In this document: piece by piece, positions 5,836 through 30,189 of the stretch
How positions within the stretch are numbered: position 1 is the first letter of the stretch
Layout of the letters: every line of letters starts with the position of its first letter
Assembly (NCBI GenBank): GCA_036397835.1
Contig: DASWIG010000167.1
Span: 1 to 30,942, forward strand
DNA from: Thermoanaerobaculia bacterium
Lineage (GTDB): Bacteria; Acidobacteriota; Thermoanaerobaculia; Multivoradales; J023
DNA: 30,942 bases
Reading direction: 5' to 3'
Program-made: the position numbers and the translations under genes
Notes under the pieces: generated by a model
What the model saw: the letters and a program-made list of their open reading frames with translations, nothing else
What the model was told of the DNA's origin: nothing
Databases searched by the model: none

Positions 5836-5844
5836 AAACGATCG

Positions 5845-5962
5845 GAGGCGCTGAACCTGGCACAGCCGGGCGCGCTCGCCGGCGTCGATCGCCAGCTTCC
5901 TGGAGGCGGCCGGCGCGGCGGCGCTGGAGCTGGCCGGCAAGATCCTGGTGCGGCGGAGCTGA
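5845..5962 (+). pseudogene. 3'-terminal remnant (about 115 bp) of a paralogue of the acidic gene at 22925..23403 (minus strand)
   Basis: Nucleotide alignment with the reverse complement of 22925..23045 matches apart from a few mismatches and two single-base indels in the 5' part. The last 28 codons are in frame and encode PASIASFLEAAGAAALELAGKILVRRS*, versus ...AGRILVRRS* in the other copy. There is no start codon and no upstream ORF. The 5' part has lost the frame. Confidence 0.6.
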
Positions 5963-5982
5963 CGCGGAACCCTCACCCCCGG

Positions 5983-6005
5983 CCCCTCTCCCAGGGGGAG
6001 AGGGG
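5983..6005. repeat. GC-rich stem-loop cccctctccc-agg-gggagagggg
   Basis: Perfect 10-bp inverted repeat (5983-5992 / 5996-6005). The same CCCTCTCC...GGAGAGG hairpin motif recurs at 16246..16271. Confidence 0.5.
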
Positions 6006-6379
6006 AGTCGGATCTGATGGATGTTCGAGCCGGGGGGAGGATTTGGACGGCGTCAGCCGTCCGGAAATCCCCCCTCGGTCCCTTTGTCAAAGGGGGGAGG
6101 TGGACTCCTCGCTGGCGCCTCGGGGCCCGAGGCTCGGCAGGCTCCGCGGGCACCGTTTGGGATGTCGAGTCAGCCATCTTGCTGCTCTCAGTCCAGCTCG
6201 AAGAGGACGATTCCCTCCCGGGCGTCCTTGACAAGCGCAAGCCCTGCGGTCCTCAAGGACGGATCGGTCATTGAGGACTTCGTCCTCGAATGGATCGTTC
6301 TCCGCGTCGAAGCCGCGGATCGGCAGGCCCAGTCTGCCCTACGAGAGCCTCGCCATTCGTTCGTGCTAGGCTTTGCGGG

Positions 6380-7261
6380 ATGTGCCCGAGCCGGCGGCGT
6401 CCGACCCTTTTCACCCTCGCCCTGTACACCCTCCTCGCGGCGCTCACGGGTCCGGCGGCCCAAGCGGCGGACCGGTTCTACGAAGACCTCCTGCGCGAAG
6501 GCATCCTGACGGCGGAGCGCGGCGACGCGCCGCGCGCCGCGCGTCTCCTGCGCCTGGCCTGCTTCGGCCTGCTCGAGGAGCCGCCGGCCTTGGCGCGTTG
6601 CCTCGCCCATCTCGCCCTGGCGCAGGCGAGCCTCGACGACGGCGACGCCTTCTTCGCCACGTTCCAGCGCGTGCTCGAGATCGAGCAGCGCTTCTCCGCG
6701 TACAGCCGCGCCGAGCTCGGCGACGAGGCGCGCCGGCGATTCGAGGGCGCCCTTCGCGAGCGGGTCTCGCCCGAGGTCCTCGCGCGCTCGCCGGCCTTCC
6801 GCCATCTCGCCCAGGATGCGACCTCCGAGGTGGTGACGGACGAAGACAACGGCCCGCCCGTTTCGGCGCCCCCCAGGAGCTTGCCGCGGGAGGTGACGGC
6901 GGCGATCATCCACGCCCGCGAGGTCCGGGGCACGGCAAGCCGCGACGAGATCCTGCGCGAGCTCGAGGCCCTGCGTCCCCTGGCCGACGCCCATCCCAGG
7001 GTGGGGGAGCTGCAGCTCCTGACCGCGGAGCTCGCCTACCGGGTGCGGCGGTGGGAGGAGAGCCGGGCCTACTTCGAGCGGGGCGAGATCCGTCCCGACC
7101 AGCCGGCGCTCGCCTTCTACTTCGCCGTGACGCTCTACGAGACCGGCGAGACGAAGCGCGCGGTGGAGGTCCTGGAGCAGTGCCTGCCGCGTCTGCGCCG
7201 CAACCCCTTCGTCGACGAGTACGCGGCGAAGATCCTGGGCGCGGGCGCCGGGGGAGGCTGA
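6380..7261 (+). CDS. Secreted alpha-helical, TPR-like hypothetical protein
   Basis: ORF 6290..7261. The likely start is the ATG at 6380, giving a signal-peptide-like N-terminus MCPSRRRPTLFTLALYTLLAALTGPAAQAADRF. The body is helical and Leu/Ala/Arg/Glu-rich. It converges on topA with a 6-bp gap. Confidence 0.5.
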   Translation: MCPSRRRPTLFTLALYTLLAALTGPAAQAADRFYEDLLREGILTAERGDAPRAARLLRLACFGLLEEPPALARCLAHLALAQASLDDGDAFFATFQRVLEIEQRFSAYSRAELGDEARRRFEGALRERVSPEVLARSPAFRHLAQDATSEVVTDEDNGPPVSAPPRSLPREVTAAIIHAREVRGTASRDEILRELEALRPLADAHPRVGELQLLTAELAYRVRRWEESRAYFERGEIRPDQPALAFYFAVTLYETGETKRAVEVLEQCLPRLRRNPFVDEYAAKILGAGAGGG

Positions 7262-7267
7262 TCGCGG

Positions 7268-9904: not shown

Positions 9905-9994
9905 TGAGCCTCGTTGTTCCGCGGCCTTCCCGGCCGCCAAGGGCGAAGAGGCTAACGGGGCGCCGATCGGGGTGTCAAGCGAGGGCTTCCGGCT

Positions 9995-11059
9995 TCACAG
10001 GAGCTCGGCGGCGTGCCGGGCCGCCCCGAGCAGCCCGACCTTAGAGTCGAGCACCACGTGGACGGGCACCCGTTCGAGCAGGGGCGCCATCCGTCCCTTG
10101 TCCTTGAACGCCGCGATGAAGCCGTCGCGCTCGAGCAGCGGCAGGATCTTGGGGGCGATGCCGCCGGCCACGTAGAGGCCGCCGTAGGGCAGCAGCTTGA
10201 GGGCCAGGTTGCCGGCCTCGGCGCCGTAGGCCCCCACGAAGACGTCCATGGTCTCCGTGCACAGCGGCTCGTCCTCGGCGATCGCGGCCTGCGACACCAC
10301 CGCCGCGAGGTCCACCGTCGGGCTCTCCTTGCCGATCTCCCGCTTCCAGGTCTCGAAGGCGGCGGCGAGCGCCGCGGACTCTCGCGCGGTGCCGCGCAGG
10401 CGCAGGAGCTCGTAGATCGAGGCGATGCCCTGGCCCGAGACCACCCGCTCCACCGAGACCCGGGTCAGTTGCAGGCTCTCGCGCAGGAAGCCGAGGAGCT
10501 CGATCTCGAGCGGCGAGCGCGGCGCGAAGTCGGTGTGGCCGCCCTCGGTGGCGAAGACCCGGTGCCCCGCGGGCGCGGGGATCAGGAACCCTTCGCCCAG
10601 GCCGGTGCCGGCGCCGATGACGGCGATCGGTGCCTCGGGCTCGTGGCGGCCGGCCTGCAGGGTGTGGAGCGCCGCCGGGGGCAGCGCGGTGACGCCGTGG
10701 CCGATGGCGGTGAAGTCGTTGATCAGCTCGACGCGGGCGATGGCGAGCTCGCGGGCCAGCCGCTCGCCGGCGAGCGTCCAGGGGAGGTTGGTCACCCGGC
10801 TGGTGTTGGCGGCGACCGGGCCGGCGACGCCGAAGCAGGCGGCCGCGGGCCGCGCTCGCCCGCCGGTCTCGGCCGCCGCGGCGGCCAGGAACTCCACCAC
10901 CATCGGCGCCAGGCCGGAGTAGGCCTTGCTCGCGTACGTCCGCTCGGCGCGCGCCGTGAGCAGCCCGCCGCGCGTCTCGACCAGGCGCAGGATCGTCTTC
11001 GTACCGCCGATGTCTCCGGCCAGCAGCGTCACCATTCTCCTCAGGCTCTCGTCTTCCAC
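9995..11059 (-). CDS. glk: Glucokinase (Glk family)
   Basis: N-terminal LLAGDIGGTKTILRL matches the Glk ATP-binding motif (compare E. coli LVGDVGGTNARLAL). Length is about 345 aa. The start may be the internal Met at 11035 (MVTLLAGDIGG). Confidence 0.8.
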   Translation of the reverse strand: MEDESLRRMVTLLAGDIGGTKTILRLVETRGGLLTARAERTYASKAYSGLAPMVVEFLAAAAAETGGRARPAAACFGVAGPVAANTSRVTNLPWTLAGERLARELAIARVELINDFTAIGHGVTALPPAALHTLQAGRHEPEAPIAVIGAGTGLGEGFLIPAPAGHRVFATEGGHTDFAPRSPLEIELLGFLRESLQLTRVSVERVVSGQGIASIYELLRLRGTARESAALAAAFETWKREIGKESPTVDLAAVVSQAAIAEDEPLCTETMDVFVGAYGAEAGNLALKLLPYGGLYVAGGIAPKILPLLERDGFIAAFKDKGRMAPLLERVPVHVVLDSKVGLLGAARHAAELL

Positions 11060-11172
11060 GCTCCTTCGGCTCCGCGTAGAGCGTAGAGTATAGGCGGCGG
11101 ACGCTGCGCCTCGCTCGTCCGTAGACTCATCGGAGCCTCTGCTGACCGAGGCCCGGCCACAGGAGCACGCAC

Positions 11173-12351
11173 ATGACCACAGCGCCCATGACCGCCGAGG
11201 ACGTTTCCGTCGCAGAGAACGCCGCCCCGGGGGCCGCGTCGGCGCCGCGGGCGTTCGAGGAGATCAAGCCGCCGCTGATCTTCGACGAGCTGCGTCACGG
11301 CGTGCTGGGGCAGGACAAGGCCTTGCGCTTCGTCGCCGTCGCCATCTTCAAGCACACCACCGGCAAGGTGCCGGGCAACCTGATGATGATCGGCAATTCG
11401 GGCACCGGCAAGACGACGGTCATGAACAACATCCAGCGGCTCTACAACACGGTGCCCGAGTACCGACCGTTCCGCGCCGTGACCATCATCAACGCCAACC
11501 TGCTGGTCGACGGCGACCGCATGGAGTTCCGTCCCGAGCGGCTGCTCTCGGCCGTCGAGCAGCGCGCCCGCGCGATCGCCGGCGCCCAGCCTTCGCCCGA
11601 GGCCCTCAAGGCGGCGATGGAGCGCGCCACGATCTGCATCGACGAGATCGACAAGATGGCCGCGGTGGTGGCCGGCAAGCCCAATCCGATCGGGGTGATC
11701 CTGCAGCAGGGCCTGCTGACGATGATGGAGGGCGAGACCATCGCCTACCCGGCCCACGTCTGGTTCCACGGCGAGGAGCGCCGGACGACGCTGGAGATCG
11801 ACACCGGCCGCATCATGTTCATCTGCGGCGGCGCCTTCGAGGGCCTCTACGACCAGGTCTACAACCGCGTGCTGAAGCCCGGCAGCGGCGAGAAGCTGCG
11901 CACCCAGACGATCCGCACGGCCGAAGGGCAGGTGCGCATCGAGACCCGCTTCGAGCTCGGCGATTACCTGAAGCCCAAGGACCTCTTCGAGTTCGGCATG
12001 GTGCCGCAGTTCATGGCGCGTTTCGAGAACACCGTGCTGCTCTACGACCTCTCCCACAAAGTGCTGAAGGAGATCCTGCTGAAGTCGTACGAGTCGCCTT
12101 TCGTGCGCTCGCGCCGCTTCTTCAAGGTGATGGACATCGCCCTCGAGATCGACGAGCTCGCCGCCGCCCTGATCGCCGAGGAGGCGGTCAAGGACAGCCG
12201 CACCGGCGCCCGCGCGCTGCGGCCGATCTTCGCCGAGATCGTCAACCCCCTGGAGTTCGACCCCTGGCACAGCGAGGCGCTCGTCAAGCGGCCCGAAGGC
12301 GGTCACCTGCTGCGCATCACGGCCGACATGGCGCGCCAGGTGTTGAAGTAG
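11173..12351 (+). CDS. ClpX-paralogous AAA+ ATPase lacking the N-terminal zinc-binding domain, with divergent pore and ClpP-docking loops
   Basis: Walker A GNSGTGKTT and Walker B ICIDEIDKM are present. Extended colinear similarity to ClpX includes ILQQGLLTMMEGE (compare GVQQALLKLIEGT), IMFICGGAFEGL (compare ILFICGGAFAGL), FGMVPQFMARF (compare FGLIPEFIGRL) and the sensor-2 RTGARALRPI (compare KTGARGLRSI). There is no C4 zinc finger. Where ClpX has GYVG, this has ...NLLVDGDRME.... Where ClpX has GSGIGF, this has GSGEKL. AGGAG lies 6 nt upstream of the ATG. Confidence 0.75.
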   Translation: MTTAPMTAEDVSVAENAAPGAASAPRAFEEIKPPLIFDELRHGVLGQDKALRFVAVAIFKHTTGKVPGNLMMIGNSGTGKTTVMNNIQRLYNTVPEYRPFRAVTIINANLLVDGDRMEFRPERLLSAVEQRARAIAGAQPSPEALKAAMERATICIDEIDKMAAVVAGKPNPIGVILQQGLLTMMEGETIAYPAHVWFHGEERRTTLEIDTGRIMFICGGAFEGLYDQVYNRVLKPGSGEKLRTQTIRTAEGQVRIETRFELGDYLKPKDLFEFGMVPQFMARFENTVLLYDLSHKVLKEILLKSYESPFVRSRRFFKVMDIALEIDELAAALIAEEAVKDSRTGARALRPIFAEIVNPLEFDPWHSEALVKRPEGGHLLRITADMARQVLK

Positions 12352-12367
12352 GTGGGCTTCGCCCACC

Positions 12368-13453
<1,086 letters not shown>

Positions 13454-13585
13454 GGCCGCGTATCTTAGCGCCCCGGCGGCGATTCGGGTAAGATCGCGGC
13501 GATCTCCTAGGAGGGAGTGTGCTCGCGGTCGGACAGGTCTGACTCGTCCGACGATTTCGGCCGGCTGGAGACGGTGGAGGACACG

Positions 13586-14866
13586 ATGAAGGTACTGGTC
13601 GTCGGATCCGGAGGCAGGGAGCACGCGCTGTGCTGGAAGCTGCGCCAGAGCCCCTTGCTCGAGGAGCTCTACTGCGCTCCCGGCAACCCCGGCATCGCCG
13701 AGGTCGCCGATCTGGTGCCGATCGCGGCGGACGAGATCCACAAGCTCCTCGACTTCGCCACCGACCTCGGCGTCGACCTGACCGTGGTCGGTCCCGAGCT
13801 GCCCCTCACCCTCGGCATCGCCGACGACTTCGCCCAACGCGGCCTGCCGCTCTTCGGGCCCCGCCAGCAGGCCGCCGAGCTCGAGGGCAGCAAGGTCTTC
13901 GCCAAGGAGTTCATGCGCCGGCACGGCATCCCGACGCCCGACTTCCGGGTCGCCCACGACGCCGAGGAGGCGCGGCGGGCCGCCGCCGGCTTCGGCTTTC
14001 CGGTGGTGCTCAAGGCCGACGGCCTGGCCGGCGGCAAGGGCGTGATGATCGCCGAGGGCCAGGACGAGCTCGAGCGCATGATCGCCGTGTTCTTCGAGGA
14101 GCGCCGCTTCGGCGCCGCGGGGGGGCGCGTGGTGGTCGAGGAGCACGTGGACGGCGAGGAGCTCTCCTTCATCGCCCTCTGCGACGGCGAGCGCGTCCTG
14201 CCGCTCGCGACCTCCAAGGACTACAAGCGCCTCGAGGACTTCGACCGCGGCCCCAACACCGGCGGCATGGGCGCCCACAGCCCGGCCGGGGTGCTCACCG
14301 CCCAGGCCTCGACCGACGTCTACGACCGCGTGGTGCGCCCCACGGTGGCGGGCCTGGCCGCCGAGGACCGGCCCTACGTGGGGGTGATCTACGCCGGCCT
14401 GATGATGACCGCCGACGGGCCGCGGGTGCTCGAGTACAACGTGCGCTTCGGCGATCCCGAGGCCCAGGCCCTGCTGCTGCGCCTCGAGTCGGACCTGCTG
14501 CCGGTGCTCGCCGCCGGCGCCGCGGGCCGCTTCGACACGGCGCGGCTCAGCTTCAAGAAGGAGGCCTCGGCGTGCCTGGTGCTGGCCAGCTCGGGCTACC
14601 CGCGCCACCCGGTGAAGGGCGAGCCGATCTCGGGGCTGGAGGCGGCGCGGCGCCACGAGGGCGTGGAGGTCTTCCACGCCGCCACCGCGCTGCGCAAGGG
14701 GCAGCTCGTCGCCGCCGGCGGCCGGGTCTTGAACGTCTGCGCCACCGGGCCGCACCTGCGCGACGCCCTCAAGCTGGCCTACCTGGCGGCGGCCGAGATC
14801 CACTGGCCGAGCAAGGTGATGCGCCGCGACGTCGGCCGCCGGGTGCTGGAGAAGGCGGCGGGTTGA
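13586..14866 (+). CDS. purD: Phosphoribosylamine--glycine ligase
   Basis: MKVLVVGSGGREHALCWKL... is the canonical PurD start, with GGAGGA upstream. The ATP-grasp core follows (VVLKADGLAGGKGV..., EYNVRFGDPE). Length is 426 aa. Confidence 0.9.
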   Translation: MKVLVVGSGGREHALCWKLRQSPLLEELYCAPGNPGIAEVADLVPIAADEIHKLLDFATDLGVDLTVVGPELPLTLGIADDFAQRGLPLFGPRQQAAELEGSKVFAKEFMRRHGIPTPDFRVAHDAEEARRAAAGFGFPVVLKADGLAGGKGVMIAEGQDELERMIAVFFEERRFGAAGGRVVVEEHVDGEELSFIALCDGERVLPLATSKDYKRLEDFDRGPNTGGMGAHSPAGVLTAQASTDVYDRVVRPTVAGLAAEDRPYVGVIYAGLMMTADGPRVLEYNVRFGDPEAQALLLRLESDLLPVLAAGAAGRFDTARLSFKKEASACLVLASSGYPRHPVKGEPISGLEAARRHEGVEVFHAATALRKGQLVAAGGRVLNVCATGPHLRDALKLAYLAAAEIHWPSKVMRRDVGRRVLEKAAG

Positions 14867-14942
14867 ACGCCGCCGGCCGCTCACTGTCGGAAGCTCGCCG
14901 TCGGACGCTCACGGACGGGCTCTGCACCGGATCGCGGACCAT

Positions 14943-14972
14943 TTGACAGGCGCCGAGAGCCGTTGCCATAAT
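14943..14972 (+). promoter_or_regulatory. Sigma70-like promoter upstream of the ricT-hfq-like-pckA cluster
   Basis: TTGACA (14943-14948), an 18-bp spacer, then CATAAT (14967-14972). It sits about 160 bp upstream of the ricT start in an otherwise GC-rich intergenic region. Confidence 0.4.
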
Positions 14973-15131
14973 CGCCGGCAGAACTCCCTGCCGTGGTCGC
15001 GGTAGATCTCGCGAGTTCTGTCTTTCGATGACGCGCTCACGAGCGCTTCCGATGATGCGGACGTCCCGGTCGTCACTCCAGGCTCCGTTCCTCCCCCAGA
15101 GGCGTCGCCGCCTCGGAAAGGATTTCTGACC

Positions 15132-15872
15132 ATGCCAGGATGCGCTGGCTGCTCGTACAAGGGCATGTCGACCGCCGTGGAAGACAGCTTCCTCGGCATC
15201 CGCTTCCGCGAGGAGACCAACCTCACCCTGTGCCGCTCGGAGGGCAAGCTCTACGCCCAGGGCGCCCGGGTGGTGGTGGAGCTGGAGGACGGGCCGGCCT
15301 ACGGCGTGGTCGAGAAGTCCCCGATGCCGGTCTTCAAGCCCTGCCAGAAGTCCGGCGCCCGGCCGATCCTGCGGCTCGCCACCGGCGAGGACGACGCGGC
15401 CAACGAGCGGCGGGTCAAGAACGAGTTCGTGGCCAAGCGTTTCTGCCGCGAGCGGGCCAAGAAGCTCGAGCTGGAGCTGAAGGTCTCGCGCGTGGACTTC
15501 ACCTTGAACGGCCGCCACGCCACCTTCTACTTCACCGCCAACGGCCGGGTGGACTTCCGCCAGCTCGTGCGCGAGCTGGCCCAGCGCTTCTCCACCCGGG
15601 TGCGCATGGTCCAGGTCGGAGCGCGCGACGAGGCGGGGCTCCTGGGCGGCATCGGCATCTGCGGCCGCACCCTCTGCTGCTCGACCTGGCTCAAGGACTT
15701 CAAGCCGATCTCGATCCAGATGGCCAAGCGCCAGAACCTGAGCCTCAACCCCTCGAAGATCTCCGGCCAGTGCGGGCGTCTGTTATGCTGTCTGGCCTAC
15801 GAAGATCCCGGCTACCAATCGAAGCGGAAACGCCCCAAGGCCGAACGGGGACAAACCCATGACGTCGCGTAA
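15132..15872 (+). CDS. ricT: PSP1 C-terminal domain protein (RicT/YaaT family)
   Basis: The N-terminal beta-region ([43 protein letters not shown]) and the conserved PSP1 Cys-rich motifs ([16 protein letters not shown]; [13 protein letters not shown]) are present. AAAGGA lies 9 nt upstream of the start. Confidence 0.8.
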
Positions 15873-16215
15873 GCTGATCCGACCGGAGAAGTCGGACCCA
15901 CGTTCCACCCGCGGAGTCCGGCGCAAGCAGGTCCCGCCCGAGCAGACCAACGCCGAGGAGTTCTACTACCTCAAGCAGATGGCGGCCAAGACCCCGATGG
16001 TCGTGGTCCTCAACAACGACGAGGAGCTCCAGGGCTGGATCGAGTGGTACGACAAGGGGTCATTGAAGCTCAACCGCAGCCACGGCCCCAACCTGCTGAT
16101 CCCCAAGCACAGCATCCGCTACATGTTCAAGGAAGAAGAGCTGAAGCGTTTCCGCAAGCGCGAGCGCGCCGCCGAGCGGGCGGCCGAGCGGGCGGCCGAG
16201 CGCGCGTCGTCCTGA
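15859..16215 (+). CDS. Divergent Hfq-like / Sm-fold RNA-binding protein with a basic N-terminal extension and a C-terminal (ERAA)n repeat tail
   Basis: An Sm1-like segment [20 protein letters not shown] (compare Hfq [20 protein letters not shown]) and an Sm2-like segment [12 protein letters not shown] (compare MVYKHAISTVV) are present. The start overlaps the ricT 3' end by 14 nt. The tail is [19 protein letters not shown]. Confidence 0.5.
16163..16204 (+). repeat. 12-nt tandem coding repeat (gcSgccgagcgS x about 3.5) encoding (ERAA)n
   Basis: gccgccgagcgg / gcggccgagcgg / gcggccgagcgc in frame at the 3' end of the hfq-like gene. Confidence 0.6.
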
Positions 16216-16245
16216 GCCCCCATCGCCGTAGGCCTTGCGACCCGG

Positions 16246-16271
16246 TCCCTCTCCGGAGGGAGAAAGCCGGA
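16246..16271. repeat. Stem-loop cctctccgg-N8-ccggagagg between the hfq-like gene and pckA
   Basis: 9-bp inverted repeat. Its 3' arm, GGAGAGG, doubles as the pckA Shine-Dalgarno sequence. The motif is related to the 5983..6005 hairpin. Confidence 0.45.
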
Positions 16272-16284
16272 GAGGTTAGACCGC

Positions 16285-17892
16285 ATGGAGAACCTTGGTC
16301 CCTACGTCAGCCGTTTCGGACTCGACCAGCAAGGCATCCTGAACGCCGGCCGGGTCTACTGGAATCTGCCGCCGGCGCAGCTCTACGAGCATGCGATCCG
16401 CCGCGGCGAGGCGGCGCTGGCGCTCGAGGGGCCGCTGGTGGCCTCCACCGGCGAGCACACCGGGCGCTCGCCCAACGACCGCTTCGTGGTCCGCGAGCCC
16501 TCGAGCGAGGCCGACGTCTGGTGGGGCAAGGTCAACCGCCCGTTCGAGCGCGAGCGCTTCGAGTGCCTGCTGCACCGGGTCCGCGCCTACGTGCAGCACC
16601 GCGACCTCTACGTGTTCGACGGCTACGCCGGCTGCGATCCGCGCTACCGGCTGCGGGTGCGGGTGATCAACGAGAACGCCTGGCAGAACCTCTTCGCGCG
16701 CAACATGTTCGTGCGCGAGAGCGAGGGCGCGCCGCTCGTCGATTTCGCGCCCGACTTCACGGTCTTGAACGTCCCCGGCTTCCAGGCCGATCCGGCCACC
16801 GACGGCACCCGCAGCGGCGCCTTCATCCTCGTCGACTTCGGCCACAAGCTGGTGCTGATCGGCGGCACCCACTACGCCGGCGAGATCAAGAAATCGATCT
16901 TCACGGTCATGAACTACGCGCTGCCGCGGCGCGGCGTGATGAGCATGCACTGCAGCGCCAACTACGGCGAGGGTCGCGACGACGTGGCGCTCTTCTTCGG
17001 GCTCTCGGGCACCGGCAAGACCACGCTCTCGGCCGATCCCGAGCGCACCCTGATCGGCGACGACGAGCACGGCTGGTCGAGCGACGGGGTCTTCAACATC
17101 GAGGGCGGCTGCTATGCCAAGGTGATCCGGCTCGACCCCGAAGGCGAGCCCGACATCTACGCCACCACGCGCTGCTTCGGCACCATCCTCGAGAACGTGG
17201 TCTACGATCCCGAGACCCGGGTGCTCGACCTCGACGACGACTCGCTGACCGAGAACACCCGCGCCAGCTATCCGATCACCCACCTGCGCAACGTCGACCC
17301 GAGCGGCTGCGCCGGCCACCCGCGCAACGTGGTCTTCCTCACCTGCGACGCCTTCGGCGTGCTGCCGCCGATCAGCCGCCTCGACGAGGCCCAGGCCATG
17401 TACCACTTCCTCTCCGGCTACACCGCCAAGGTGGCGGGCACCGAGCGCGGCGTCACCGAGCCGAGCGCGACTTTCAGCACCTGCTTCGGAGCGCCCTTCA
17501 TGCCGCTGCACCCCGGCACCTACGCCCGCCTCCTGGGCGAGAAGATCGCCCGCCACCAGGCGCGGGTCTGGCTGGTCAACACCGGCTGGACCGGCGGGCC
17601 CTACGGCACCGGCCGGCGCCTCAAGCTGGGCCACACCCGGCGCATGGTCACCGCGGCCTTGACCGGCGCCCTCGACGAGGTGCCCACCGCGCGCGATCCG
17701 ATCTTCGGCCTCGCCGTGCCCGAGCGCGTCGACGGCGTGCCGCCGGAGACGCTCACGCCGCGCCGCACCTGGAGCGACGGCGCCGCCTACGACGCCCAGG
17801 CCGCCAAGCTGGCGCGCATGTTCGTCGACAACTTCGAGCAGTACGCCGACGAAGTGAGCGGCGAGGTCCGGGCGGCGGGGCCGAAGGGCTGA
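16285..17892 (+). CDS. pckA: Phosphoenolpyruvate carboxykinase (ATP)
   Basis: Kinase-1a motif [13 protein letters not shown] is present, with family-wide similarity such as [23 protein letters not shown] and [14 protein letters not shown]. Length is 535 aa, with a good upstream SD. Confidence 0.9.
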
Positions 17893-17907
17893 GGGACGAG
17901 GACGGCG

Positions 17908-19533
17908 TCAGCCGTCCTCGCTCAGGCGTTGCAGGTTCCGGAGCGCCAGCTCGTTGTTCGGGCTGATGCGCAGGAGACGCTCGAACAGCTCCCGTGCCTC
18001 TTCCTTCTCCCCCTTCATCATCACCACCACGGCGAGGTCGTTGAGCGCCGGCACGTGCTCGGGGACGAGCTCGAGCGCGCGGCGCAGGTCCTGCTCGGCG
18101 GCGGCCGCGTCCTCGAGGGCCATGCGGACGACGCCGCGCTGGTAATAGGCGTCGACGTTGTCCGGGAAGCGCTCGACCGTGGCCTCGCACGAGCGCAGCG
18201 CGTCCTCGTAGCGCTCGAGCGAGGCCAGCAGCCGCACCTCGAGCAGCCGCGGACGCACGTCGTCCGGCGTCAGCGCGATCTCCTGGCGCAGCACCGCCAG
18301 GGCCTTCTGCGGCTCGCCGCCCGCCACCGCTTCCTGGACCTCGCGCAGCAGCTCGTTCACGGGATCCTGCGCCGCCGCCTCGGCCGCCTGCCGGCGGGCC
18401 TGCGCTTCCTCGGCGAGCCGGCGGAGGCTCTCGCGGGCCGCGCCCGCCTCGGCGTCTCGTCCGGCGGCGGTCAACGCCTCGCCCAGGCTCTCCCACGCGA
18501 GCTGCTCCCGCGGCCCGATCTCGGCCGCCCTCTCGAGATACGGGAGGGCGTCGGCGGCCCGGCCCGTCGACGCCAGCGCACGGCCGTAGTCGAGGAGCAC
18601 CCGGTAGGCGACGGGACCGCCGGCGGACGCGTGCGACGTCACCTGGCGGGCGAACGGCTCGAGCGCGGCGGCGGCCGCGGCGAGGTCGCCGCCCTCGCGG
18701 TGTGCTTCGGCCAGCAGCAGGGCGAGGCGCGGGTCGCCGTCCACCCGGCCGTCGAGCAGCGCCACCGCGTCGCCCGCCCGGCCCACGCGGAGGTAGCTGC
18801 CGGCGAGCACCCGGAGCACGTCGGTGCGCAGCTCGGGCGGCGCGGCCTCGCGCAGGCGCTCGAGCGCCACGATGGCGCTCTGGGGGTCGCCGGTCTGGCT
18901 CAGGTACTGCGCGCGCAGCAGGGCCACGCGCGGCTCGTCGGGCAGGCCCTGGAACAGGGGTGCCACCTCTTCGCCGTGTCCGAGCGTCAGGCCGGCGGCG
19001 ATGAGGGCGATCCGCGCCGGCACGTCGCCGAGGTTCTGCGCCACCCACGCGCGCAGCAGCAGGAAGGAGTCCGCCACCCGACCCTGGGCGCCGCGCAGGA
19101 GCCCCAGCTCGCGGGTGGCGGGCGAGACCGCCACCTTGGCGACCGAGCGCTCGAGATAGGCCTCGGCCGCCGCGGCTTCGCCCACGGCGAGGGCCGCGCG
19201 CCCGGCGTTGTAGAGCACCGCGGGATCGGCCGCCTCGCCGTCGGCCACCGCCCGCAGCGCGTCCAGGGCCTCGGCGGCGCGGCCCGCCTCGAGGTAGAGC
19301 GTGCCCAGGAGCGCCAGGTCCACGTGGGTGGCGGCGCCGGTCTGCCGCTGCCGTTCGAGGAGCTCGATCGCTCCCGTCGCGTCGTCCTGCCGGAGCCGTT
19401 CGTAGGCCTGCCGGCCGACCTCCGAGAACTCGGCCGGGTTCTGGGCCGGCGCCTCGCTCTGGGCGAGGGCCGAGGCGGCGGCGAGGACGGCGCCGAGCAG
19501 AAATGGGATGAGGCGGTTGGCTTGGGTCGGCAT
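17908..19533 (-). CDS. Secreted TPR-repeat protein
   Basis: The ATG at 19533 gives a signal peptide MPTQANRLIPFLLGAVLAAASALAQSEA. The body is all TPR-like helical repeats (AxxYxxLG..A pattern). The track's longer version, starting at 19623, adds an Arg/Pro-rich leader that is unlikely to be real. Confidence 0.65.
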   Translation of the reverse strand: MPTQANRLIPFLLGAVLAAASALAQSEAPAQNPAEFSEVGRQAYERLRQDDATGAIELLERQRQTGAATHVDLALLGTLYLEAGRAAEALDALRAVADGEAADPAVLYNAGRAALAVGEAAAAEAYLERSVAKVAVSPATRELGLLRGAQGRVADSFLLLRAWVAQNLGDVPARIALIAAGLTLGHGEEVAPLFQGLPDEPRVALLRAQYLSQTGDPQSAIVALERLREAAPPELRTDVLRVLAGSYLRVGRAGDAVALLDGRVDGDPRLALLLAEAHREGGDLAAAAAALEPFARQVTSHASAGGPVAYRVLLDYGRALASTGRAADALPYLERAAEIGPREQLAWESLGEALTAAGRDAEAGAARESLRRLAEEAQARRQAAEAAAQDPVNELLREVQEAVAGGEPQKALAVLRQEIALTPDDVRPRLLEVRLLASLERYEDALRSCEATVERFPDNVDAYYQRGVVRMALEDAAAAEQDLRRALELVPEHVPALNDLAVVVMMKGEKEEARELFERLLRISPNNELALRNLQRLSEDG

Positions 19534-19643
19534 CACGGGTCCCCCTGAGTGTGTGAAAGGCGCCGGCCGCAATCGAGGGGGTGGTTCGTTGAGGTATTCT
19601 CGCGGTCGGCGGTGCGCCGGCAAGACGAACGGCGTAAGGAAGG

Positions 19644-20783
19644 ATGATAATGTACGCGGCCCTACGGCGCGGAACGATCGTGGTCTGGATCGCCTGCTCG
19701 GCGGTGCGAGCGGTGCCGGCGCAGGCGGGCACGGAGGAGCTGCTGGCGCGCGCCGCCGCCGACCTCACGGCCGGCCGCTTCGCCGCCGCGGAAATAGTCT
19801 ACCGCGAGCTCGCCGCGCGCCAGCCGGGTCTGATCGACGCCCACCGCGGCCTGTCGCGGGCGCTCGCCGCGCAGCAGCGCCGGAGCGAGGCCGCCGCGGT
19901 GCTCGGCGGTCTCGGCGAGGGTCTCCTGGGCGCGGGACGGCACGCCGCCGCCGCCGAGGTGCTCGGCGAGGCCGCGGAGCTCGCCGCCGCGGACCCTCGC
20001 CTCCAGGCGCTGCTGGGCAAGGCCCGCCTCTTCGCGCAGAGCCCGCAAGCGGCCATCGCGCCGCTCGAGCGCGCCCGCGAGCTCGGCGACGCCAGCCTCC
20101 TCACCCGCCTCTACCTCGCCGCCGCCCTGTGGGAGAGCGGACGCCCGGAGGCCGCCGAGAGGCTCTACCGCGAGCTCGTCGCCGGCGCCGCCGGGCCTTT
20201 CGCCGCCGTCCACCAGCTCGGCCGCCTGCTGCTCTGGCAGGGCCGCTTCGCCGAGGCCGCGCCGCTGCTCGAGCGGGCCGCCGCCGAGCGTCCCGCCGCC
20301 GCCGACGTGCGCTTCGACCTGGCGCAGGCCCTGGCCGGCGCCGGCGAGCTCGACGGCGCCCTCGCCGCCTACCGGCGCACCGTGGAGCTCTCGCCCGGCC
20401 ACTACAAGGCCTTCTACGGCCTCGCCCGCGTGCTGGCGCGGCTTGGCGGCCAGGACGCCGCCGCCCGCGAGGCCCTCGCCACCTACCAGCGCCTCTACGC
20501 CGCCGAGCAGGAGGCGACGCGGCGCGAGAACCTGGAGCGCGCCCGCCTCGACCGCGGCTGGAAGGCGATCGAGGACGGCGCCTACCGCGAGGCGATCGGC
20601 CTTTTCGAGCGTCTCGGCGCCAGTCCCGAGGCCCTTGCCGGCACCGCCGCCGCCTGGACGCTTCTCGGCGATCCGGCGCGCGCCGCCGAGCACCTCGAAC
20701 GGGCGGTGGCCCTGGCGCCGGAGCGCGAGGACCTGCGGCGTCTGCTCGCCGAGGCCCGGCTGGCGGCCGGTGGAGATACCTGA
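19644..20783 (+). CDS. TPR-repeat protein (secreted or periplasmic)
   Basis: The N-terminus MIMYAALRRGTIVVWIACSAVRAVPAQAG is signal-like, and AAGGAAGG lies upstream. TPR-like repeats run throughout. Its stop overlaps the next gene's start (TGATG). Confidence 0.6.
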   Translation: MIMYAALRRGTIVVWIACSAVRAVPAQAGTEELLARAAADLTAGRFAAAEIVYRELAARQPGLIDAHRGLSRALAAQQRRSEAAAVLGGLGEGLLGAGRHAAAAEVLGEAAELAAADPRLQALLGKARLFAQSPQAAIAPLERARELGDASLLTRLYLAAALWESGRPEAAERLYRELVAGAAGPFAAVHQLGRLLLWQGRFAEAAPLLERAAAERPAAADVRFDLAQALAGAGELDGALAAYRRTVELSPGHYKAFYGLARVLARLGGQDAAAREALATYQRLYAAEQEATRRENLERARLDRGWKAIEDGAYREAIGLFERLGASPEALAGTAAAWTLLGDPARAAEHLERAVALAPEREDLRRLLAEARLAAGGDT

Positions 20784-22411
20784 TGGTGCGGCTCGCCCTC
20801 GTGGGCCTCGTCCTGGCGGCGCCGCCGGCCGGCGACGACCCCTGCGCCACCCCGCGCTTCACCGAGACCGCCGCCGACGCCGGCGTCGTCTTCACCCACG
20901 ACCCGGGCTCCCGCGGCGAATACCACCTGCCGGAGTCGATGGGCGCCGGGCTCGCCTGGCTCGACTACGACGGCGACGGCTGGAGCGACCTCTACGCCGT
21001 GCAGTCGGGCCCCTTCCCAGGCGGCGGCGAACCCGGCCGTCTGTGGCGCAACCTGGGAACGGGCGACGACGGCCGCGCGACCTTCGAGGACGTGACCGAG
21101 CGCGCCTTGCCCGACGCCGGCGGCTACGGCCAGGGCGCCCTCGCCGCCGACCTCGACGGCGACGGCTGGACCGATCTCTACCTGACCCGCTTCGGCCCCG
21201 ACGCCTTCCTGCGCAACCGAGGCGACGGAACCTTCGAGGACGCGACCGCGGCCTTCGGCCTCGGCCTTCCCGGCTGGAGCTCCTCGGCCGCCGCCGCCGA
21301 CGCCGACGGCGACGGCGAACTCGACCTCTACGTGACCCGCTACCTGGTCTACGACCCGTCCGAGGAGCTCTTCTGCGGCGACCTCGAGCGCGGCCTGCGC
21401 CGCTTCTGCGACCCGGTGCTCTTCGCCGGCGCCGAGGACCGCTTCTTCGTCAACCGGGGAGGCCGTTTCGAGGACGCCACCGCCGCCGCGGGCCTCGCCG
21501 GCGCCGCCGGCAAGGGCCTCGGCGTGGTCTTCACCGACCTCGACGGCGACCGCCGTCCCGACCTCTACGTGGCCAACGACCTGACGCCGAACTTCCTCTT
21601 CCGCAACCTCGGCCGGCGTTTCGAGGACGTCTCCCTCTTCTCCGGCGCCGCCGCCAACCGCGAAGGCGCCTTCGAGGCCGGCATGGGGATCGCCGTCGGC
21701 GACGTCGACGGCGACGGCGACCCCGATCTCGCGGTGACCAACTTCGACGTCGAGACCAACACGCTCTACCTCAACCTCGGTTCGATGCAATTCGAGGACG
21801 TCTCGGCCCGCAGCGGCTTCGGCACTCCGTCGTTCAACCTCCTCGGCTTCGGCGTCGCTTTGGCCGACTTTGACCGCGACGGCGGCCTCGACGCCTGGGT
21901 GGCCAACGGCCACATCTTCGAGCATCCGCCGCGCGAGAACGTCACCCACGCCCAGCGCGACTTGCTGCTGCTCGGCGACGGCCGCGGCGGCTTCCGCGAG
22001 CGTCGCTGCCCGTGGCTCGAGGAGAGGCCGCTGGTTGGCCGCGGCCTCGCCGTGGCCGACTACGACCGCGACGGCGACGCGGACGTGGCGATCGTCAACA
22101 ACGGCGGTCCGCTGCAACTGTGGCGCAACGACGCCGAGGCGGGCGGCTGGCTCGCCGTGGAGGCCGAGAGCGTGGGGACGACGGTGGACGTCGTCGACGC
22201 CGGCGGCCGCCGCCGGCGCCGCTGGGTGACGGCGGGAGACAGCTACCAGTCGACCAGCGAGCGGCGGCCGCTCTTCGGGCTGGGCGCGTCCTCGCCGGCG
22301 GCGGTCGAGGTCGCCTGGCCCGACGGCCGGCGGACGCGATTGCAGGGCCTGCGCCCCTCCCCCGGCGGCTCCGGCGACCGCGGTGCGGGGCTGGCCATGC
22401 GCTTCCGGTGA
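20783..22411 (+). CDS. FG-GAP/VCBS repeat protein with C-terminal ASPIC/UnbV domain (CRTAC1 family)
   Basis: DxDGDGxxD FG-GAP calcium-binding repeats recur (LDYDGDGWSDLY, DLDGDGWTDLYL, DADGDGELDLYV, DVDGDGDPDLAV, DYDRDGDADVAI). The C-terminus RRWVTAGDSYQSTSERRPLFGLG...VEVAWPDGR is typical of ASPIC/UnbV. The start overlaps the upstream TPR stop. The first 425 codons of track ORF 19508..22411 are a different gene and its frame extension. Confidence 0.8.
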   Translation: MVRLALVGLVLAAPPAGDDPCATPRFTETAADAGVVFTHDPGSRGEYHLPESMGAGLAWLDYDGDGWSDLYAVQSGPFPGGGEPGRLWRNLGTGDDGRATFEDVTERALPDAGGYGQGALAADLDGDGWTDLYLTRFGPDAFLRNRGDGTFEDATAAFGLGLPGWSSSAAAADADGDGELDLYVTRYLVYDPSEELFCGDLERGLRRFCDPVLFAGAEDRFFVNRGGRFEDATAAAGLAGAAGKGLGVVFTDLDGDRRPDLYVANDLTPNFLFRNLGRRFEDVSLFSGAAANREGAFEAGMGIAVGDVDGDGDPDLAVTNFDVETNTLYLNLGSMQFEDVSARSGFGTPSFNLLGFGVALADFDRDGGLDAWVANGHIFEHPPRENVTHAQRDLLLLGDGRGGFRERRCPWLEERPLVGRGLAVADYDRDGDADVAIVNNGGPLQLWRNDAEAGGWLAVEAESVGTTVDVVDAGGRRRRRWVTAGDSYQSTSERRPLFGLGASSPAAVEVAWPDGRRTRLQGLRPSPGGSGDRGAGLAMRFR

Positions 22412-22426
22412 TTCCGGGAACCGGGG

Positions 22427-22760
22427 TGCAGGCGCTGCAATGCACCTCGGCCAATTCCCGAAACTGGATTGCAGGCACTGCATCGCACCTTCGCCAATTG
22501 CCGGAAGTGCGCTGCAGGGTCTGCAACGCACTTTTGCCAATTGAGGAAGTAGCATTGCAGGCACTGCAGCGCACCCTGCCAATTGCCGGAAGTGCGTTGC
22601 AGCGGCTGCAACGCACCTCTGCCAATTGAGGAAGTTGCATTGCAGGAGCTGCAGCGTACTTCTGCCAATTCACAGAAGCGCATTGCAGAGGCTGCAGCGC
22701 TACTTTCCTAATCGAGGCAATAGCGTTGCAGAGGCTGCAACGTCACGGTCACGGCGGTGC
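22427..22760. repeat. Intergenic tandem array of about 8 copies of a 42-43-bp palindromic unit (not CRISPR)
   Basis: Units start at 22427, 22470, 22513, 22556, 22598, 22641, 22684 and 22727. Each contains TGCAGNNNCTGCA(N)CGCAC, which together with the preceding GTGCG forms an 11-bp-arm inverted repeat (GTGCGCTGCAG-N3-CTGCAGCGCAC). An 18-20-bp linker follows, carrying GCCAATTG (CAATTG palindrome). Linkers alternate between two variants (..ccggaagtgcg. and ..aggaagtWgcat), which points to an 86-bp higher-order repeat. The terminal copies are degenerate. Confidence 0.85.
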
Positions 22761-22924
22761 AGTCGGCTGACTCCTTCCCGCAAGTGCTGAAAACACGTGG
22801 CTTACGCCAAAGCGACTCGGTCCGGCAGGAAGATCCGGGAAACTGGATATCCCAGACAGACATAGACGATGGGAGCGCAGGCGAGACGCTTGCTCGCCTC
22901 ATCTGCACTCCCTGCGGGCGCCGT

Positions 22925-23403
22925 TCAGCTCCGACGCACCAGGATCCTGCCGGCCAACTCCAGCGCCGCCGCGCCCGCCGCTTCCAGGAAGCTGGCGATC
23001 GACGCCGGGCAGCGCGCCAGGCCGTCGGCGAGGTTCAGCGCCTCCGTCAGCTCCGGATTGCCGTGGCGCAGCCGGCCCACGGCGCGGCCGTCCCGATAGA
23101 GCACGGGACCGCCGGCGTCCTCCGGGTCGACGGAGAAGCTCCGCGTCCGGTCTACCAACGGCAGGAATGCGGCGGCGAGCAGGGCCGTGTCGCGGTCGGT
23201 GAGGGTGCCGAAGGGCTCGTCGCCGTCCTCCGGATTCTCCCACATGCGAACAGGCCGTAGCGCTCGTCGCCGAGCGGCACCACGCGCCAGAAGCCGCCGG
23301 TCACCGCCTCGCCGGCGGTCACGGGGTCGTCGTGCTGGTCGAGACTTCGGAGGTAGCTCGGATGGAAGGCGTTGACGAGGGTAGAATCGTCTTGATCGGG
23401 CAT
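22925..23403 (-). pseudogene. Acidic hypothetical protein gene disrupted by a frameshift near 23246
   Basis: Two abutting minus-strand ORFs, 23403..23152 (MPDQDDSTLVNAFHPSYL...GDERYGLFA) and 23245..22925 (MWENPEDGDEPFGTLTDRD...ELAGRILVRRS), are colinear in adjacent frames and overlap at ggcctgttcgcatgtgggag. Joined, they would give an acidic protein of about 160 aa. It is divergent from hsdM. A 3' remnant of a paralogue lies at 5845..5962. Confidence 0.55.
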
Positions 23404-23555
23404 TGGGTGTACTCCTTTGCCTGGTCAGGTCCGGGCGAGCGCCAACTCGCTCGGGCCGTCTTGGTTTTGTGAAGCGGATGCTCCGTTACCGCTAAGAGTA
23501 GCCGGATTCCGGGGACAAGTCAACCCTCGAGAGCGTCAAAGGCTGGGATTCTTCG

Positions 23556-25491
<1,936 letters not shown>

Positions 25492-25499
<8 letters not shown>

Positions 25500-26745
25500 T
25501 GCAGGAACCATGGAGCGGGCTGTTACCAATGCCGAGCTTGGGGCCTCCATGCTTCCACGTGAGTGGGAGATCGTCGAGTTTGACGCCTCTATTCAGAAAG
25601 GCCGACTGCCGGTCAGGAAAATCAAGTCTTCGGATTACATGGCAAAGGGCCGGTTCCCTATAGTAGACCAAGGCCAAGGACTGATTGCCGGATACTGGGA
25701 TGACTCGGATGGATTGTATGATGGCCAGGAACCGGTTATTGTCTTCGGTGATCACACTCGCACCTTCAAATACATAGATTTCCCGTTCTTTGCCGGCGCC
25801 GATGGTACACAGATCCTGCGACCTAACACGAAGATCTTTGATCCTCGCTTTCTGTACTATGCCCTCACATTCCTGTCAATTCCGAGCCGGGGATATAATA
25901 GACATTACTCGATTCTACGACAGAAACACCTGTCAAGACCACCGCTAAGCGAACAACGAGCCATCGCCCATGTCCTGCGGACGGTGCAGCGAGCGAAGGA
26001 AGCGACGGAGAAGGTCATCGCCGCCGCCCGTCAACTCAAGCAGAGCCTCATGCGTCATCTGTTCACTTATGGCCCCGTTCCGTTCCACGAGGCCGGCCAA
26101 GTGGACATTCGCGGAACAGATTTCGGCGCAGCGCCAGCGAACTGGACGATAATGCGATTGGACGAGTGCGCCGAAGTTCAAACAGGGGTAGCGAAGGGTC
26201 GCAAGCTCAATTCGACAGAAACCGTGACGCTTCCCTATCTTCGCGTTGCGAACGTCCAAGATGGCTTTCTCGATCTGACGGAGATAAAGACCTTGACGAT
26301 TCGCTCCTCAGAAGTAGATCGTTACTCGTTGAGACGCGGCGACGTGGTCCTCACAGAAGGCGGTGATTTCGACAAGTTGGGGCGTGGCTTCATCTGGACC
26401 GAGGAAGTGTCCCTCTGCATCCACCAGAATCACATTTTCGCCGTCCGTGCCAATCGAGAGCTCCTCCTGCCCGAGTTTCTCGCCTACATGACGCAGAGCA
26501 ACTACGGTAAGGCGTATTTCCTCTCCGTCGCGCACAAGACTACAAACCTCGCCTGCATCAACACGACAAAGCTGAAAGCCTTTCCTGCTCTCCTTCCTGA
26601 ATTGGAAGGCCAGCGGAGCATAATAGAGCGACTGCGATTCGTTGATCGCAAGATCGCCGCCGAGGAAGCCAAGAGAAGCAGTCTCGAATCGTTGTTCAGC
26701 TCACTCCTGCACGAGCTAATGACCGGACAAACCCGAGTTGATTAG
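25492..26745 (+). CDS. hsdS: Type I restriction-modification specificity subunit
   Basis: Two target-recognition domains are separated by the conserved central helix (LSEQRAIAHVLRTVQRAKEATEKVIAAARQLKQSLMRHLFTYG). The matching C-terminal conserved helix is LEGQRSIIERLRFVDRKIAAEEAKRSSLESLFSSLLHELMTGQ. GC content is markedly lower than in neighbouring genes. It overlaps hsdM. Confidence 0.85.
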
Positions 26746-26770
26746 CGGATTCTACCAAAGTGAGAGTGTG

Positions 26771-29658
<2,888 letters not shown>

Positions 29659-29659
<1 letters not shown>

Positions 29660-29994
29660 TGAGTCGAGCGACGGCGACGGCCGTGGCCGAGTGGGCGCCG
29701 CTCGAGGACGCGGTGAGCAAGGACGTGCTGCGAGCCGAGATCCGGGTCTGGGCGGATCGGATCGGCGTGGAGGCTAAAGAGGTCCACATCCGTCCGATGC
29801 GTCGCAAGTGGGGCAGTTGCTCCACGGCTGGGCGGGTGACGTTCAGCTTGGACCTCCTCGTCGAGCCGGCGGAATTCCGCAAGCGGGTGATCGTCCACGA
29901 GCTGCTGCACCTGAAGGTGCCGAACCACGGCAAGCTGTTCCGGGCGTTGTTGCGAGCGTACACGGATTCAGGCGAGTCTCCGTCCTCTCCCTGA
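29659..29994 (+). CDS. DUF45 / YgjP-like (M48-related) zinc metallopeptidase, short form
   Basis: The WGSCS motif is followed by the HExxH-containing segment VIVHELLHLKVPNHGKLF, as in the YgjP/DUF45 family. It is translationally coupled to hsdR (TAATG). DUF45 genes are commonly found next to type I hsd operons. Confidence 0.65.
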
Positions 29995-30189
29995 TTCCCA
30001 GCCTGAAATCGGCTCCGGTACAAGTCACTGAGAACAGGGACCTTATCGCCACCGGGCGAAAAAATCTCAAACCCCGCGTCAGAATTCACGGCTCTCATAC
30101 GTCTTACAGGTCTTCAGTAGACGCAAGCACGGATTGCGCGCGTCTCTCAAGTGCCGCTCTCGTTCCCGAGGGGCGGCGACGGAGGACCT

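Follow-up and report, generated by a model that had tools for sequence, protein, structure and literature searches.

Known Palindromic Repeats and Repeated Binding Sites

To our knowledge, the dispersed palindromic repeats characterised so far are almost all from Proteobacteria. REP families usually exceed 100 copies per genome, with some families at 20-100, and the cognate RAYT is an IS200/IS605-like Y1 transposase whose gene is flanked by the repeats. Pneumococcal BOX elements contain a tandemly repeated boxB module; a partition centromere has parA/parB (sopA/sopB) adjacent to it and sits on a replicon that needs partition. [quoted passage not shown] One end of each palindrome is marked by an unpaired tetranucleotide, GTAG (GT[A/G]G) or CGTC (PMC3733652, PMC2817692), and the palindromes are kept by complementary mutations (PMC2817692); published REPs are mostly located 3' of ORFs and in the gaps between convergent ones (PMC3733652). 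BIMEs are regularly spaced mosaic clusters (PMC2817692). The sopC site of the F plasmid is composed of 12 direct 43-bp repeats, each with a 16-bp inverted repeat that is bound by SopB (PMC3177203).

The window analysed here is a 30,942-bp stretch of DNA (contig DASWIG010000167.1) that holds an array of 43-bp palindromic units. Exact protein matches and a homology search assign the window to an uncultured bacterium of the Thermoanaerobaculia (Acidobacteriota). The array is very probably one of the copies of a non-coding repeat family, dispersed in this bacterium and specific to its lineage, that is REP/BIME-like in kind. A REP/BIME-like element had been among the possibilities raised in the preliminary description; it is still the closest known kind, with dispersal at about 14 loci, but several of the features that define REPs fail. 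Judged from its sequence, the 43-bp family appears to work like REP/BIME elements and is filed as a variant of that kind, outside the GTAG-REP superfamily.

The Array and Its Units

The core TGCAG-N3-CTGCA occurs eight times across 22427-22739, with exact starts at 22427, 22470, 22513, 22556, 22598, 22641, 22684, and 22727 and a spacing of 43/43/43/42/43/43/43 bp; Tandem Repeats Finder (TRF) reports periods of 43, 86, and 128 over 22427-22731. The core, repeat and consensus analyses place the array of eight 43-bp units (one of which is 42 bp) at 22427-22769, with no strand assigned. The TRF periods and the eight regularly spaced cores establish the 43-bp tandem array of the preliminary description as real, and its 86-bp dimer alternation is borne out by a match rate of 82% at period 86 vs 76% at period 43. 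The window has 12 occurrences of an extended core pattern (0.08 expected) and 4 of GCCAATTG (0.36 expected), every one within the array; the G+C content of the array region is 58%, compared to 69% for the window. It is agreed that the array is non-coding, as 43 is not divisible by 3, and that it is not a CRISPR, as the entire 43-bp unit repeats and unique spacers are absent; the window also has no cas genes. A search of 22000-23600 against Rfam 15 gave only microRNA-hairpin-type matches below the gathering score.

Each unit in the window runs from the invariant TGCAG-N3-CTGCA core through ACGCAC-YTCY-GCCAATT to a variable 13-nt linker; the complete unit is a degenerate double palindrome, with its second centre at CAATTG. 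The near-perfect 11-3-11 palindrome described previously is found in units 3 and 5 only; the part that is invariant across units is 5-3-5. The degenerate units of the window array are the two closest to the adjacent small gene, referred to here as S.

Two further degenerate units lead into the array at 22341-22426 (no strand assigned), as placed by a profile scan and by the same periodicity with which they are in phase. With a unit profile made solely from units of other loci, a reverse-reading unit at 22397-22439 scores 24.9 bits. Two positions in phase with the array, 22384 and 22341, score 1.3 and -8.6, ranking first and third among ~61,000 non-array positions, for which the scan maximum is -5.0. 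From these scores and ranks it follows that the TGA at 22409-22411 is inside a degenerate unit, and the array does not, as had been stated, start after the ASPIC stop codon; the one or two leading degenerate units cover this stop codon together with the last ~23 codons. The profile scan found no second unit elsewhere in the window.

A 99-bp tandem repeat of a different nature (2.1 copies, 76% matches) is present at 4839-5049, where it is coding and inside the 679-aa gene at 3739-5778.

Sequence Constraint and Folding of the Unit

Among 55 distinct internal units, the consensus is TGCAG-NNN-CTGCA-ACGCAC-YTCY-GCCAATT-SCCGRAAGTGC-NT. The near-invariant positions are the core arms, G16C17, T21, G24, A27A28T29T30 (AATT), A36, and G40C41; the central triplet N3 and several linker positions have an entropy near the maximum. 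The per-position conservation is mirror-symmetric (r=0.77), a value reached by 6 of 20,000 permutations. A distance of 21.5 bp separates the two dyad centres, in the core and at AATT, and each of them returns at 43-bp intervals.

Compensatory change is found in neither dyad among these units. For the variable pairs centred on CAATTG, the Watson-Crick counts vs those under independence are 27 vs 26.6, 32 vs 26.4, and 19 vs 26.1; the outer arms of the core dyad have 115 observed pairs, below the shuffled-partner mean of 129 +/- 4.5, and the G-to-A changes in the core (TACAG variants) stay uncompensated. As the partners in the dyads vary and show no covariation, selection on folded hairpins is counter-indicated, within the limited power of a test whose units are tied by recent block copying and so are not independent; the missing covariation could instead reflect recent common ancestry and concerted evolution of the units. 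Mirror-symmetric conservation without compensation favours an interpretation of the units as putative phased duplex-DNA binding sites over one as selected hairpins.

The complementary mutations of REP palindromes therefore have no counterpart in the 43-bp units, where Watson-Crick pairs show no excess over independence. Nor is the REP tag present as a rule: GTAG is at a fixed position in 12 of the 55 distinct units, all of one linker variant, GTGG is in 2, and CGTC is in 0. The alternating orientation of BIMEs is likewise missing, since the 43-bp units are mostly head-to-tail with occasional reversals, e.g. ><>>>=><.

Anatomy of the Copied Element

The repeated element consists of a ~165-190-bp spacer and a mosaic array of 2-9 head-to-tail 43-bp units; every array continues on one side into the spacer. 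The order of unit variants u1-u8 is nearly identical at no fewer than 7 loci, and the arrays therefore arose by copying of whole blocks, not by fresh expansion at every locus. There are four spacer types, which have in common the conserved block GYTGAAAACASG...CTTGCC (22781-22808 in the window). Spacer comparison assigns the stretch between the array and S, at 22770-22924 on the minus strand, to type D; it contains CAAGTGCTGAAAACACGTGGCTTACGCC (22781-22808), which the other spacer types also have, and GGGAAACTGGAT at 22841-22852, which resembles a unit linker. Type D spacers adjoin the 3' end of full-length S and are found in the window and at loci L133 and L143; type E spacers adjoin a variant, often 5'-truncated remnant of S and are found at nine loci. 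The D and E layouts account for most loci, and arrays with no S gene nearby are those of L139, L128, and L129; a 123-aa ORF adjoining the L139 array was considered as a diverged S and rejected (E=34).

The outer end of the array is sharp, and E-type copies pass from unrelated DNA to GGTTGACGGGGGCGAT and then to the array; in L140/L146 an S copy is joined at codon ~22 directly to the array end. Loci L118 and L133 carry the same island, with S and the array, beside different chromosomal genes, and the homology between them begins exactly at the outer edge of the array. The boundary of the element on the S side is ragged.

As a composite non-coding element with an internal module in variable repeat number and with intergenic dispersal, it resembles MITE-like or segmentally duplicated non-autonomous elements such as BOX; it differs from these in that neither terminal inverted repeats nor target-site duplications were identified for it, and in its one ragged boundary. 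It also differs from REP/BIME elements in that arrays and spacer are copied as whole blocks, together with a neighbouring gene family.

The Small Gene S

The gene S encodes 159 aa and was delimited at 22925-23403 on the minus strand through comparison with L118, L119, and L127, in all of which it is intact. The window copy has a 1-bp deletion near 23245 that shifts the frame, which is either a pseudogene mutation or an assembly error; it is annotated at NCBI as the truncated 106-aa VGG06_07490. The ASPIC gene and S converge on the array, which separates their 3' ends. A region of ~60 bp upstream of S (23405-23467, minus strand), identified through locus comparison, is conserved at all S copies and contains, just upstream of the gene, a GC-rich hairpin with a 12-bp stem at 23428-23457. 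The window also contains a solo remnant of an S paralogue at 5843-5985 on the plus strand, consisting of the last ~120 nt and a little downstream sequence with the array absent; it has 91-95% identity to other S copies and sits between the genes at 3739-5778 and 6290-7261.

The VGG06 MAG has at least 8 paralogues of S, a gene whose wider family, with about 577 cluster representatives, is uncharacterised. Searches of the S protein against Pfam, NCBIfam and PADLOC gave no matches, an HUH or Y1 signature is absent, and fusions elsewhere in the family offer no clue. With a pI of 4.4-5.1 the protein is strongly acidic; AlphaFold models it poorly (pLDDT 58), and no fold matches the model significantly. 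Distant homologues of S and five close paralogues have no array alongside. Based on its acidity, the lack of a domain or fold match, and its many array-free relatives, S is concluded to accompany the array often, as a passenger or neighbour, and to be neither the protein that binds it nor its transposase.

Several paralogues of S, in L156/L157 (5637-7307), L166 (1357-2223), and L162 (2608-3120), are near genes for SLFN_AlbA_2-domain, Phd/YefM or RHH antitoxin-like, and SieB-like proteins, which hints that the S family belongs to defence or toxin-antitoxin neighbourhoods. Different palindromic repeats are found downstream of array-free S paralogues in L159 (5600-5830), L166 (3400-3640), and L152 (6550-6720), e.g. 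CCCAGGGT...ACCCTGGG and CCGCGGCTTCGCCGCGG; the position downstream of S paralogues may be occupied by several repeat families.

Neighbouring Genes and the Island Junction

The window genes upstream of the array include those for TopA, glucokinase, PurD, and PEPCK, and those downstream are hsdM, hsdS, hsdR, and a YgjP-like gene. What had been given as an ASPIC gene of 967 aa, closest to the array on the upstream side, is an ORF (19508-22411) that was extended too far and comprises two genes: a TPR gene at 19644-20783 and an FG-GAP/UnbV_ASPIC gene at 20783-22411, the ATG of which, at 20783, overlaps the preceding TGA.

Locus L118 is 99.5% identical to the window over 6285-23507, including S and the array, in which there is one base difference. 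Beyond ~23507 it has BrxL_N, SLFN_AlbA_2/HATPase_c_4/Fic-like, and other genes in place of hsdMSR; the collinearity comparison places the breakpoint at 23490-23507, with no strand assigned. As L118 keeps the ASPIC gene, the array and S but swaps the cargo, the island junction is at ~23507, about 750 bp past the array and on the far side of S, and not at the array itself as the preliminary description had it. The DNA beside S constitutes a variable defence-island hotspot (window 23507-30000 vs L118 17236-21608 vs L133 2755-6840), the cargo of which is hsdM/hsdS/hsdR and the YgjP-like gene in the window, and BrxL_N, SLFN_AlbA_2/HATPase_c_4/Fic-like and three unknown genes in sister strains; L133 carries the same alternative island at another chromosomal locus with 98% identity. 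The cargo neighbouring arrays is often defence-like with a low GC3, and includes type I R-M, BrxL_N/SLFN, and an MmeI/PglX-like methyltransferase with a PIN protein. In L143 the gene of a P4-type integrase starts 70 bp from the array; housekeeping neighbours at other array loci are UvrC and a GT2 glycosyltransferase. No tRNA genes, which could serve as integration targets, are present in the window or in 21 loci.

Within the R-M cargo of the window, HsdM (23556-25499, plus strand) has an N-terminal extension of ~130 aa before the HsdM_N domain, with a weak SAP-domain match (E=0.001) below the Pfam cut-off. The G+C content of hsdS (25450-26800) is 0.51-0.58 with a GC3 of 0.62, compared to about 0.65-0.69 with a GC3 of about 0.9 for hsdM and hsdR; this suggests that the specificity subunit was separately acquired or is fast-evolving.

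Dispersal, Probably within One Population

A unit-specific pattern of 22 fixed bases, matched exactly, was found in 27 JGI metagenome contigs, 12 of them from sample Ga0299906, and was absent from all 185,579 species-representative genomes; plasmids and phages, compared with the array by blastn, and viral contigs, searched with the unit pattern, gave no matches. In the matched contigs the arrays have 2-9 units, spaced at strictly 43 bp. After overlapping contigs were merged, about 14 distinct loci with different outer flanks remained, a number that is a lower bound owing to the exact 22-base pattern; about 70 distinct units are spread across these loci in one population. Proteins identical to those of the MAG of the window (locus tags VGG06_) are present in the same samples, and the population of the window recurs in several ENA and JGI metagenomes; the about 14 array loci probably belong to this same population, although the S paralogues looked up on named contigs of the MAG lack arrays. 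The preliminary description had noted that the array would be unremarkable if its unit proved to be a common dispersed element, and the unit is indeed dispersed at about 14 loci of one population; the local specificity claimed for the array is removed by this dispersal.

The arrays are intergenic at all loci, save for the overlap with a stop codon. In the window no more than 13 nt separate the array start from the stop codon of ASPIC, and in L128 the array begins 10 nt past a stop codon; the elements tend toward gene ends and the margins of variable defence-gene islands.

Other matches were rejected. L125 and L130 have one pattern match each, apparently by chance or unrelated, and a loose two-core pattern applied to the species genomes returned 117+ loci that are mostly chance matches or coding 9- or 42-bp repeats. 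Intergenic 43- or 42-bp tandem arrays with a TGCAG-N3-CTGCA core do exist in L002 (3766-4023), L097 (4292-4590), and L014 (2001-2071), the hosts of which are unrelated MAGs (Deltaproteobacteria, Comamonadaceae, Myxococcota). These look-alikes were rejected as homologues: neighbouring genes are not shared, S is not nearby, and the similarity ends at the required core, with a best score of 0.9 bits vs 17-43 for real units. Their second palindromes also differ, being CGATCG in L002 and TGTGATC..GATCACA in L014; on sequence comparison, these arrays are regarded as analogous in design and not homologous to the 43-bp family.

The generic features of a REP are all present in the 43-bp family, which is extragenic, short and multi-copy, has a palindromic 5-3-5 core, and shares a common consensus. 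Like E. coli BIME-2 and the REP clusters of Xanthomonas and Pseudomonas, it forms regular mosaic arrays from few unit and linker variants. The loci recovered number about 14 or more, with 2-9 units each and almost never singletons, and no Y1_Tnp match that would indicate a RAYT was found among the flanking genes examined at the array loci. The family further resembles REP/BIME elements in its location at 3' gene ends and convergent intergenic sites and in being species- or lineage-specific (PMC2817692, PMC3733652, PMC12306157).

Alternative Explanations for the Array

The array could act at the level of RNA, as a REP-like element in the transcribed 3' end of the convergent genes whose stack of hairpins would terminate or insulate transcription and protect mRNA 3' ends, and would otherwise be selfish. 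Its location between convergent 3' ends, starting at the ASPIC stop codon, suits such a role, as does a scan for sigma-70 promoters and intrinsic terminators between the convergent genes that was empty except for the hairpin upstream of S. The two strands of the array fold at -194 and -192 kcal/mol (z -9.2 and -8.7) and single units at -6 to -18 kcal/mol; however, z values of about -9 on both strands are obtained because any palindromic tandem repeat folds so, and they are not independent evidence of a fold. Neither dyad has compensatory substitutions, the transitions in the core being uncompensated, the invariant stem has just 5 bp, and Rfam yields sub-threshold generic hairpin matches only. 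The transcribed hairpins envisaged in the preliminary description are weakened by this lack of compensation, while the very stable single-strand folding still stands and leaves room for RNA or cruciform roles; an RNA element is the main alternative, yet considered rather unlikely overall. A role of the units as sites of a RAYT-like or tyrosine recombinase (integron attC/pdif-like), with the arrays delimiting exchanged modules, is improbable. It would account for homology breakpoints at module edges, namely the outer edge of the array (L118 vs L133) and the upstream edge of S (window vs L118), for the fusion into codon ~22 of S in L140/L146, and for type I R-M or BrxL_N/SLFN cargo at the same site in different strains; the P4-type integrase gene 70 bp from the array in L143 and the 12-6-12 layout of the CAATTG centre with its ~12-bp imperfect arms also agree with it. 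Homologous recombination between dispersed copies would account equally for the breakpoints, however, and an integrase is nearby at only 1 of about 14 loci, no Y1/HUH transposase is in any of the flanks, tRNA targets are absent, and the S-side boundary is ragged and imprecise. It is correspondingly doubtful that the spacer and array are the cis boundaries of a recombination system that shuffles defence islands and small-gene cassettes among a dozen Thermoanaerobaculia landing sites, with the dyads bound by a dedicated recombinase or accessory protein; if true, such a system would be the chromosomal counterpart of integron attC or pdif modules, built from tandem arrays.

A partition centromere like sopC, or an iteron array, left by an integrated plasmid or prophage would explain the period and the general architecture, which match those of the F-plasmid site in the exact 43-bp period and in direct repeats that each have a dyad motif (PMC3177203). 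The 43-bp family differs from sopC in being chromosomal and multi-copy, with two dyads per unit, and has neither partition genes nor sequence similarity to it. The element is at many chromosomal loci of one population, flanked by housekeeping genes (PEPCK, TopA, UvrC); parA/parB (sopA/sopB) and Rep genes are absent from the window and from all array loci, and there is no similarity to plasmids, phages, or viral contigs. This origin is thus very improbable and close to refuted, although sopC is a plausible model, by analogy, for a phased array of dimer-binding sites. The suggestion of a site array for a dimeric protein fares differently in its two parts: it is favoured by the conservation pattern, but its iteron/parS centromere version is unlikely given the chromosomal multi-copy state, the lack of par/rep genes, and the lack of plasmid or phage matches. 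The last possibility, also raised previously, makes the array an att site or a scar from the insertion of the type I R-M island beside it; the proximity of hsdMSR and a drop in GC at 22450-22900 could be cited in its favour. It is scarcely credible, as L118 has a near-identical array with different cargo and a break in collinearity only at ~23507, and as many loci, among them those beside UvrC, the glycosyltransferase and other genes, have arrays and no R-M system; L118 and L133 together refute it. The array carries no specific information on how the type I R-M island was inserted.

Proposed Mechanism

Taken as a whole, the best explanation is a dispersed, BIME-like, block-copied family with units that serve as phased duplex binding sites, which is judged to be slightly on the probable side. 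The part of it that concerns mechanism, in which the units are phased, dyad-symmetric sites in duplex DNA for a sequence-specific dimeric or multimeric protein, is more tentative and is put at somewhat below an even chance; it is drawn from the pattern of conservation.

According to this explanation, the element would be a selfishly or passively dispersed BIME-like non-coding module, in which the spacer and array are copied between loci as a block, usually with S paralogues or 5'-truncated S remnants. A putative symmetric, sequence-specific dimeric or multimeric protein would recognise the units as duplex DNA. A 21.5-bp distance between centres and a 43-bp repeat would come close to 2 and 4 helical turns, so that all the sites would lie on one face of the helix; helical phasing may in this way be the cause of the 43-bp period. 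Sites on one face could assemble a cooperative nucleoprotein array, which may have a part in nucleoid structure or topology, or be the platform recognised by whatever enzyme spreads the element; these are the physiological roles that could be envisaged, and arrays between convergent genes may also block read-through. A candidate binding protein was not found at the loci examined, where the adjacent S protein is acidic and has no known domain.

Significance

The 43-bp arrays constitute a well-delimited repeat family in an uncultured class of the Acidobacteriota, a poorly studied phylum, and they depart from the REP/BIME rules in several ways. The units are phased and head-to-tail at 43 bp with two dyads each, and their sequence conservation is symmetric without compensated stems; the element spreads in blocks with a multi-copy uncharacterised gene and is met repeatedly where variable defence islands begin or end. 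Should the units be bound by a protein, they would provide a clean repeated target for finding a new DNA-binding or recombination protein, and the family would also mark hotspots of island exchange in this lineage.
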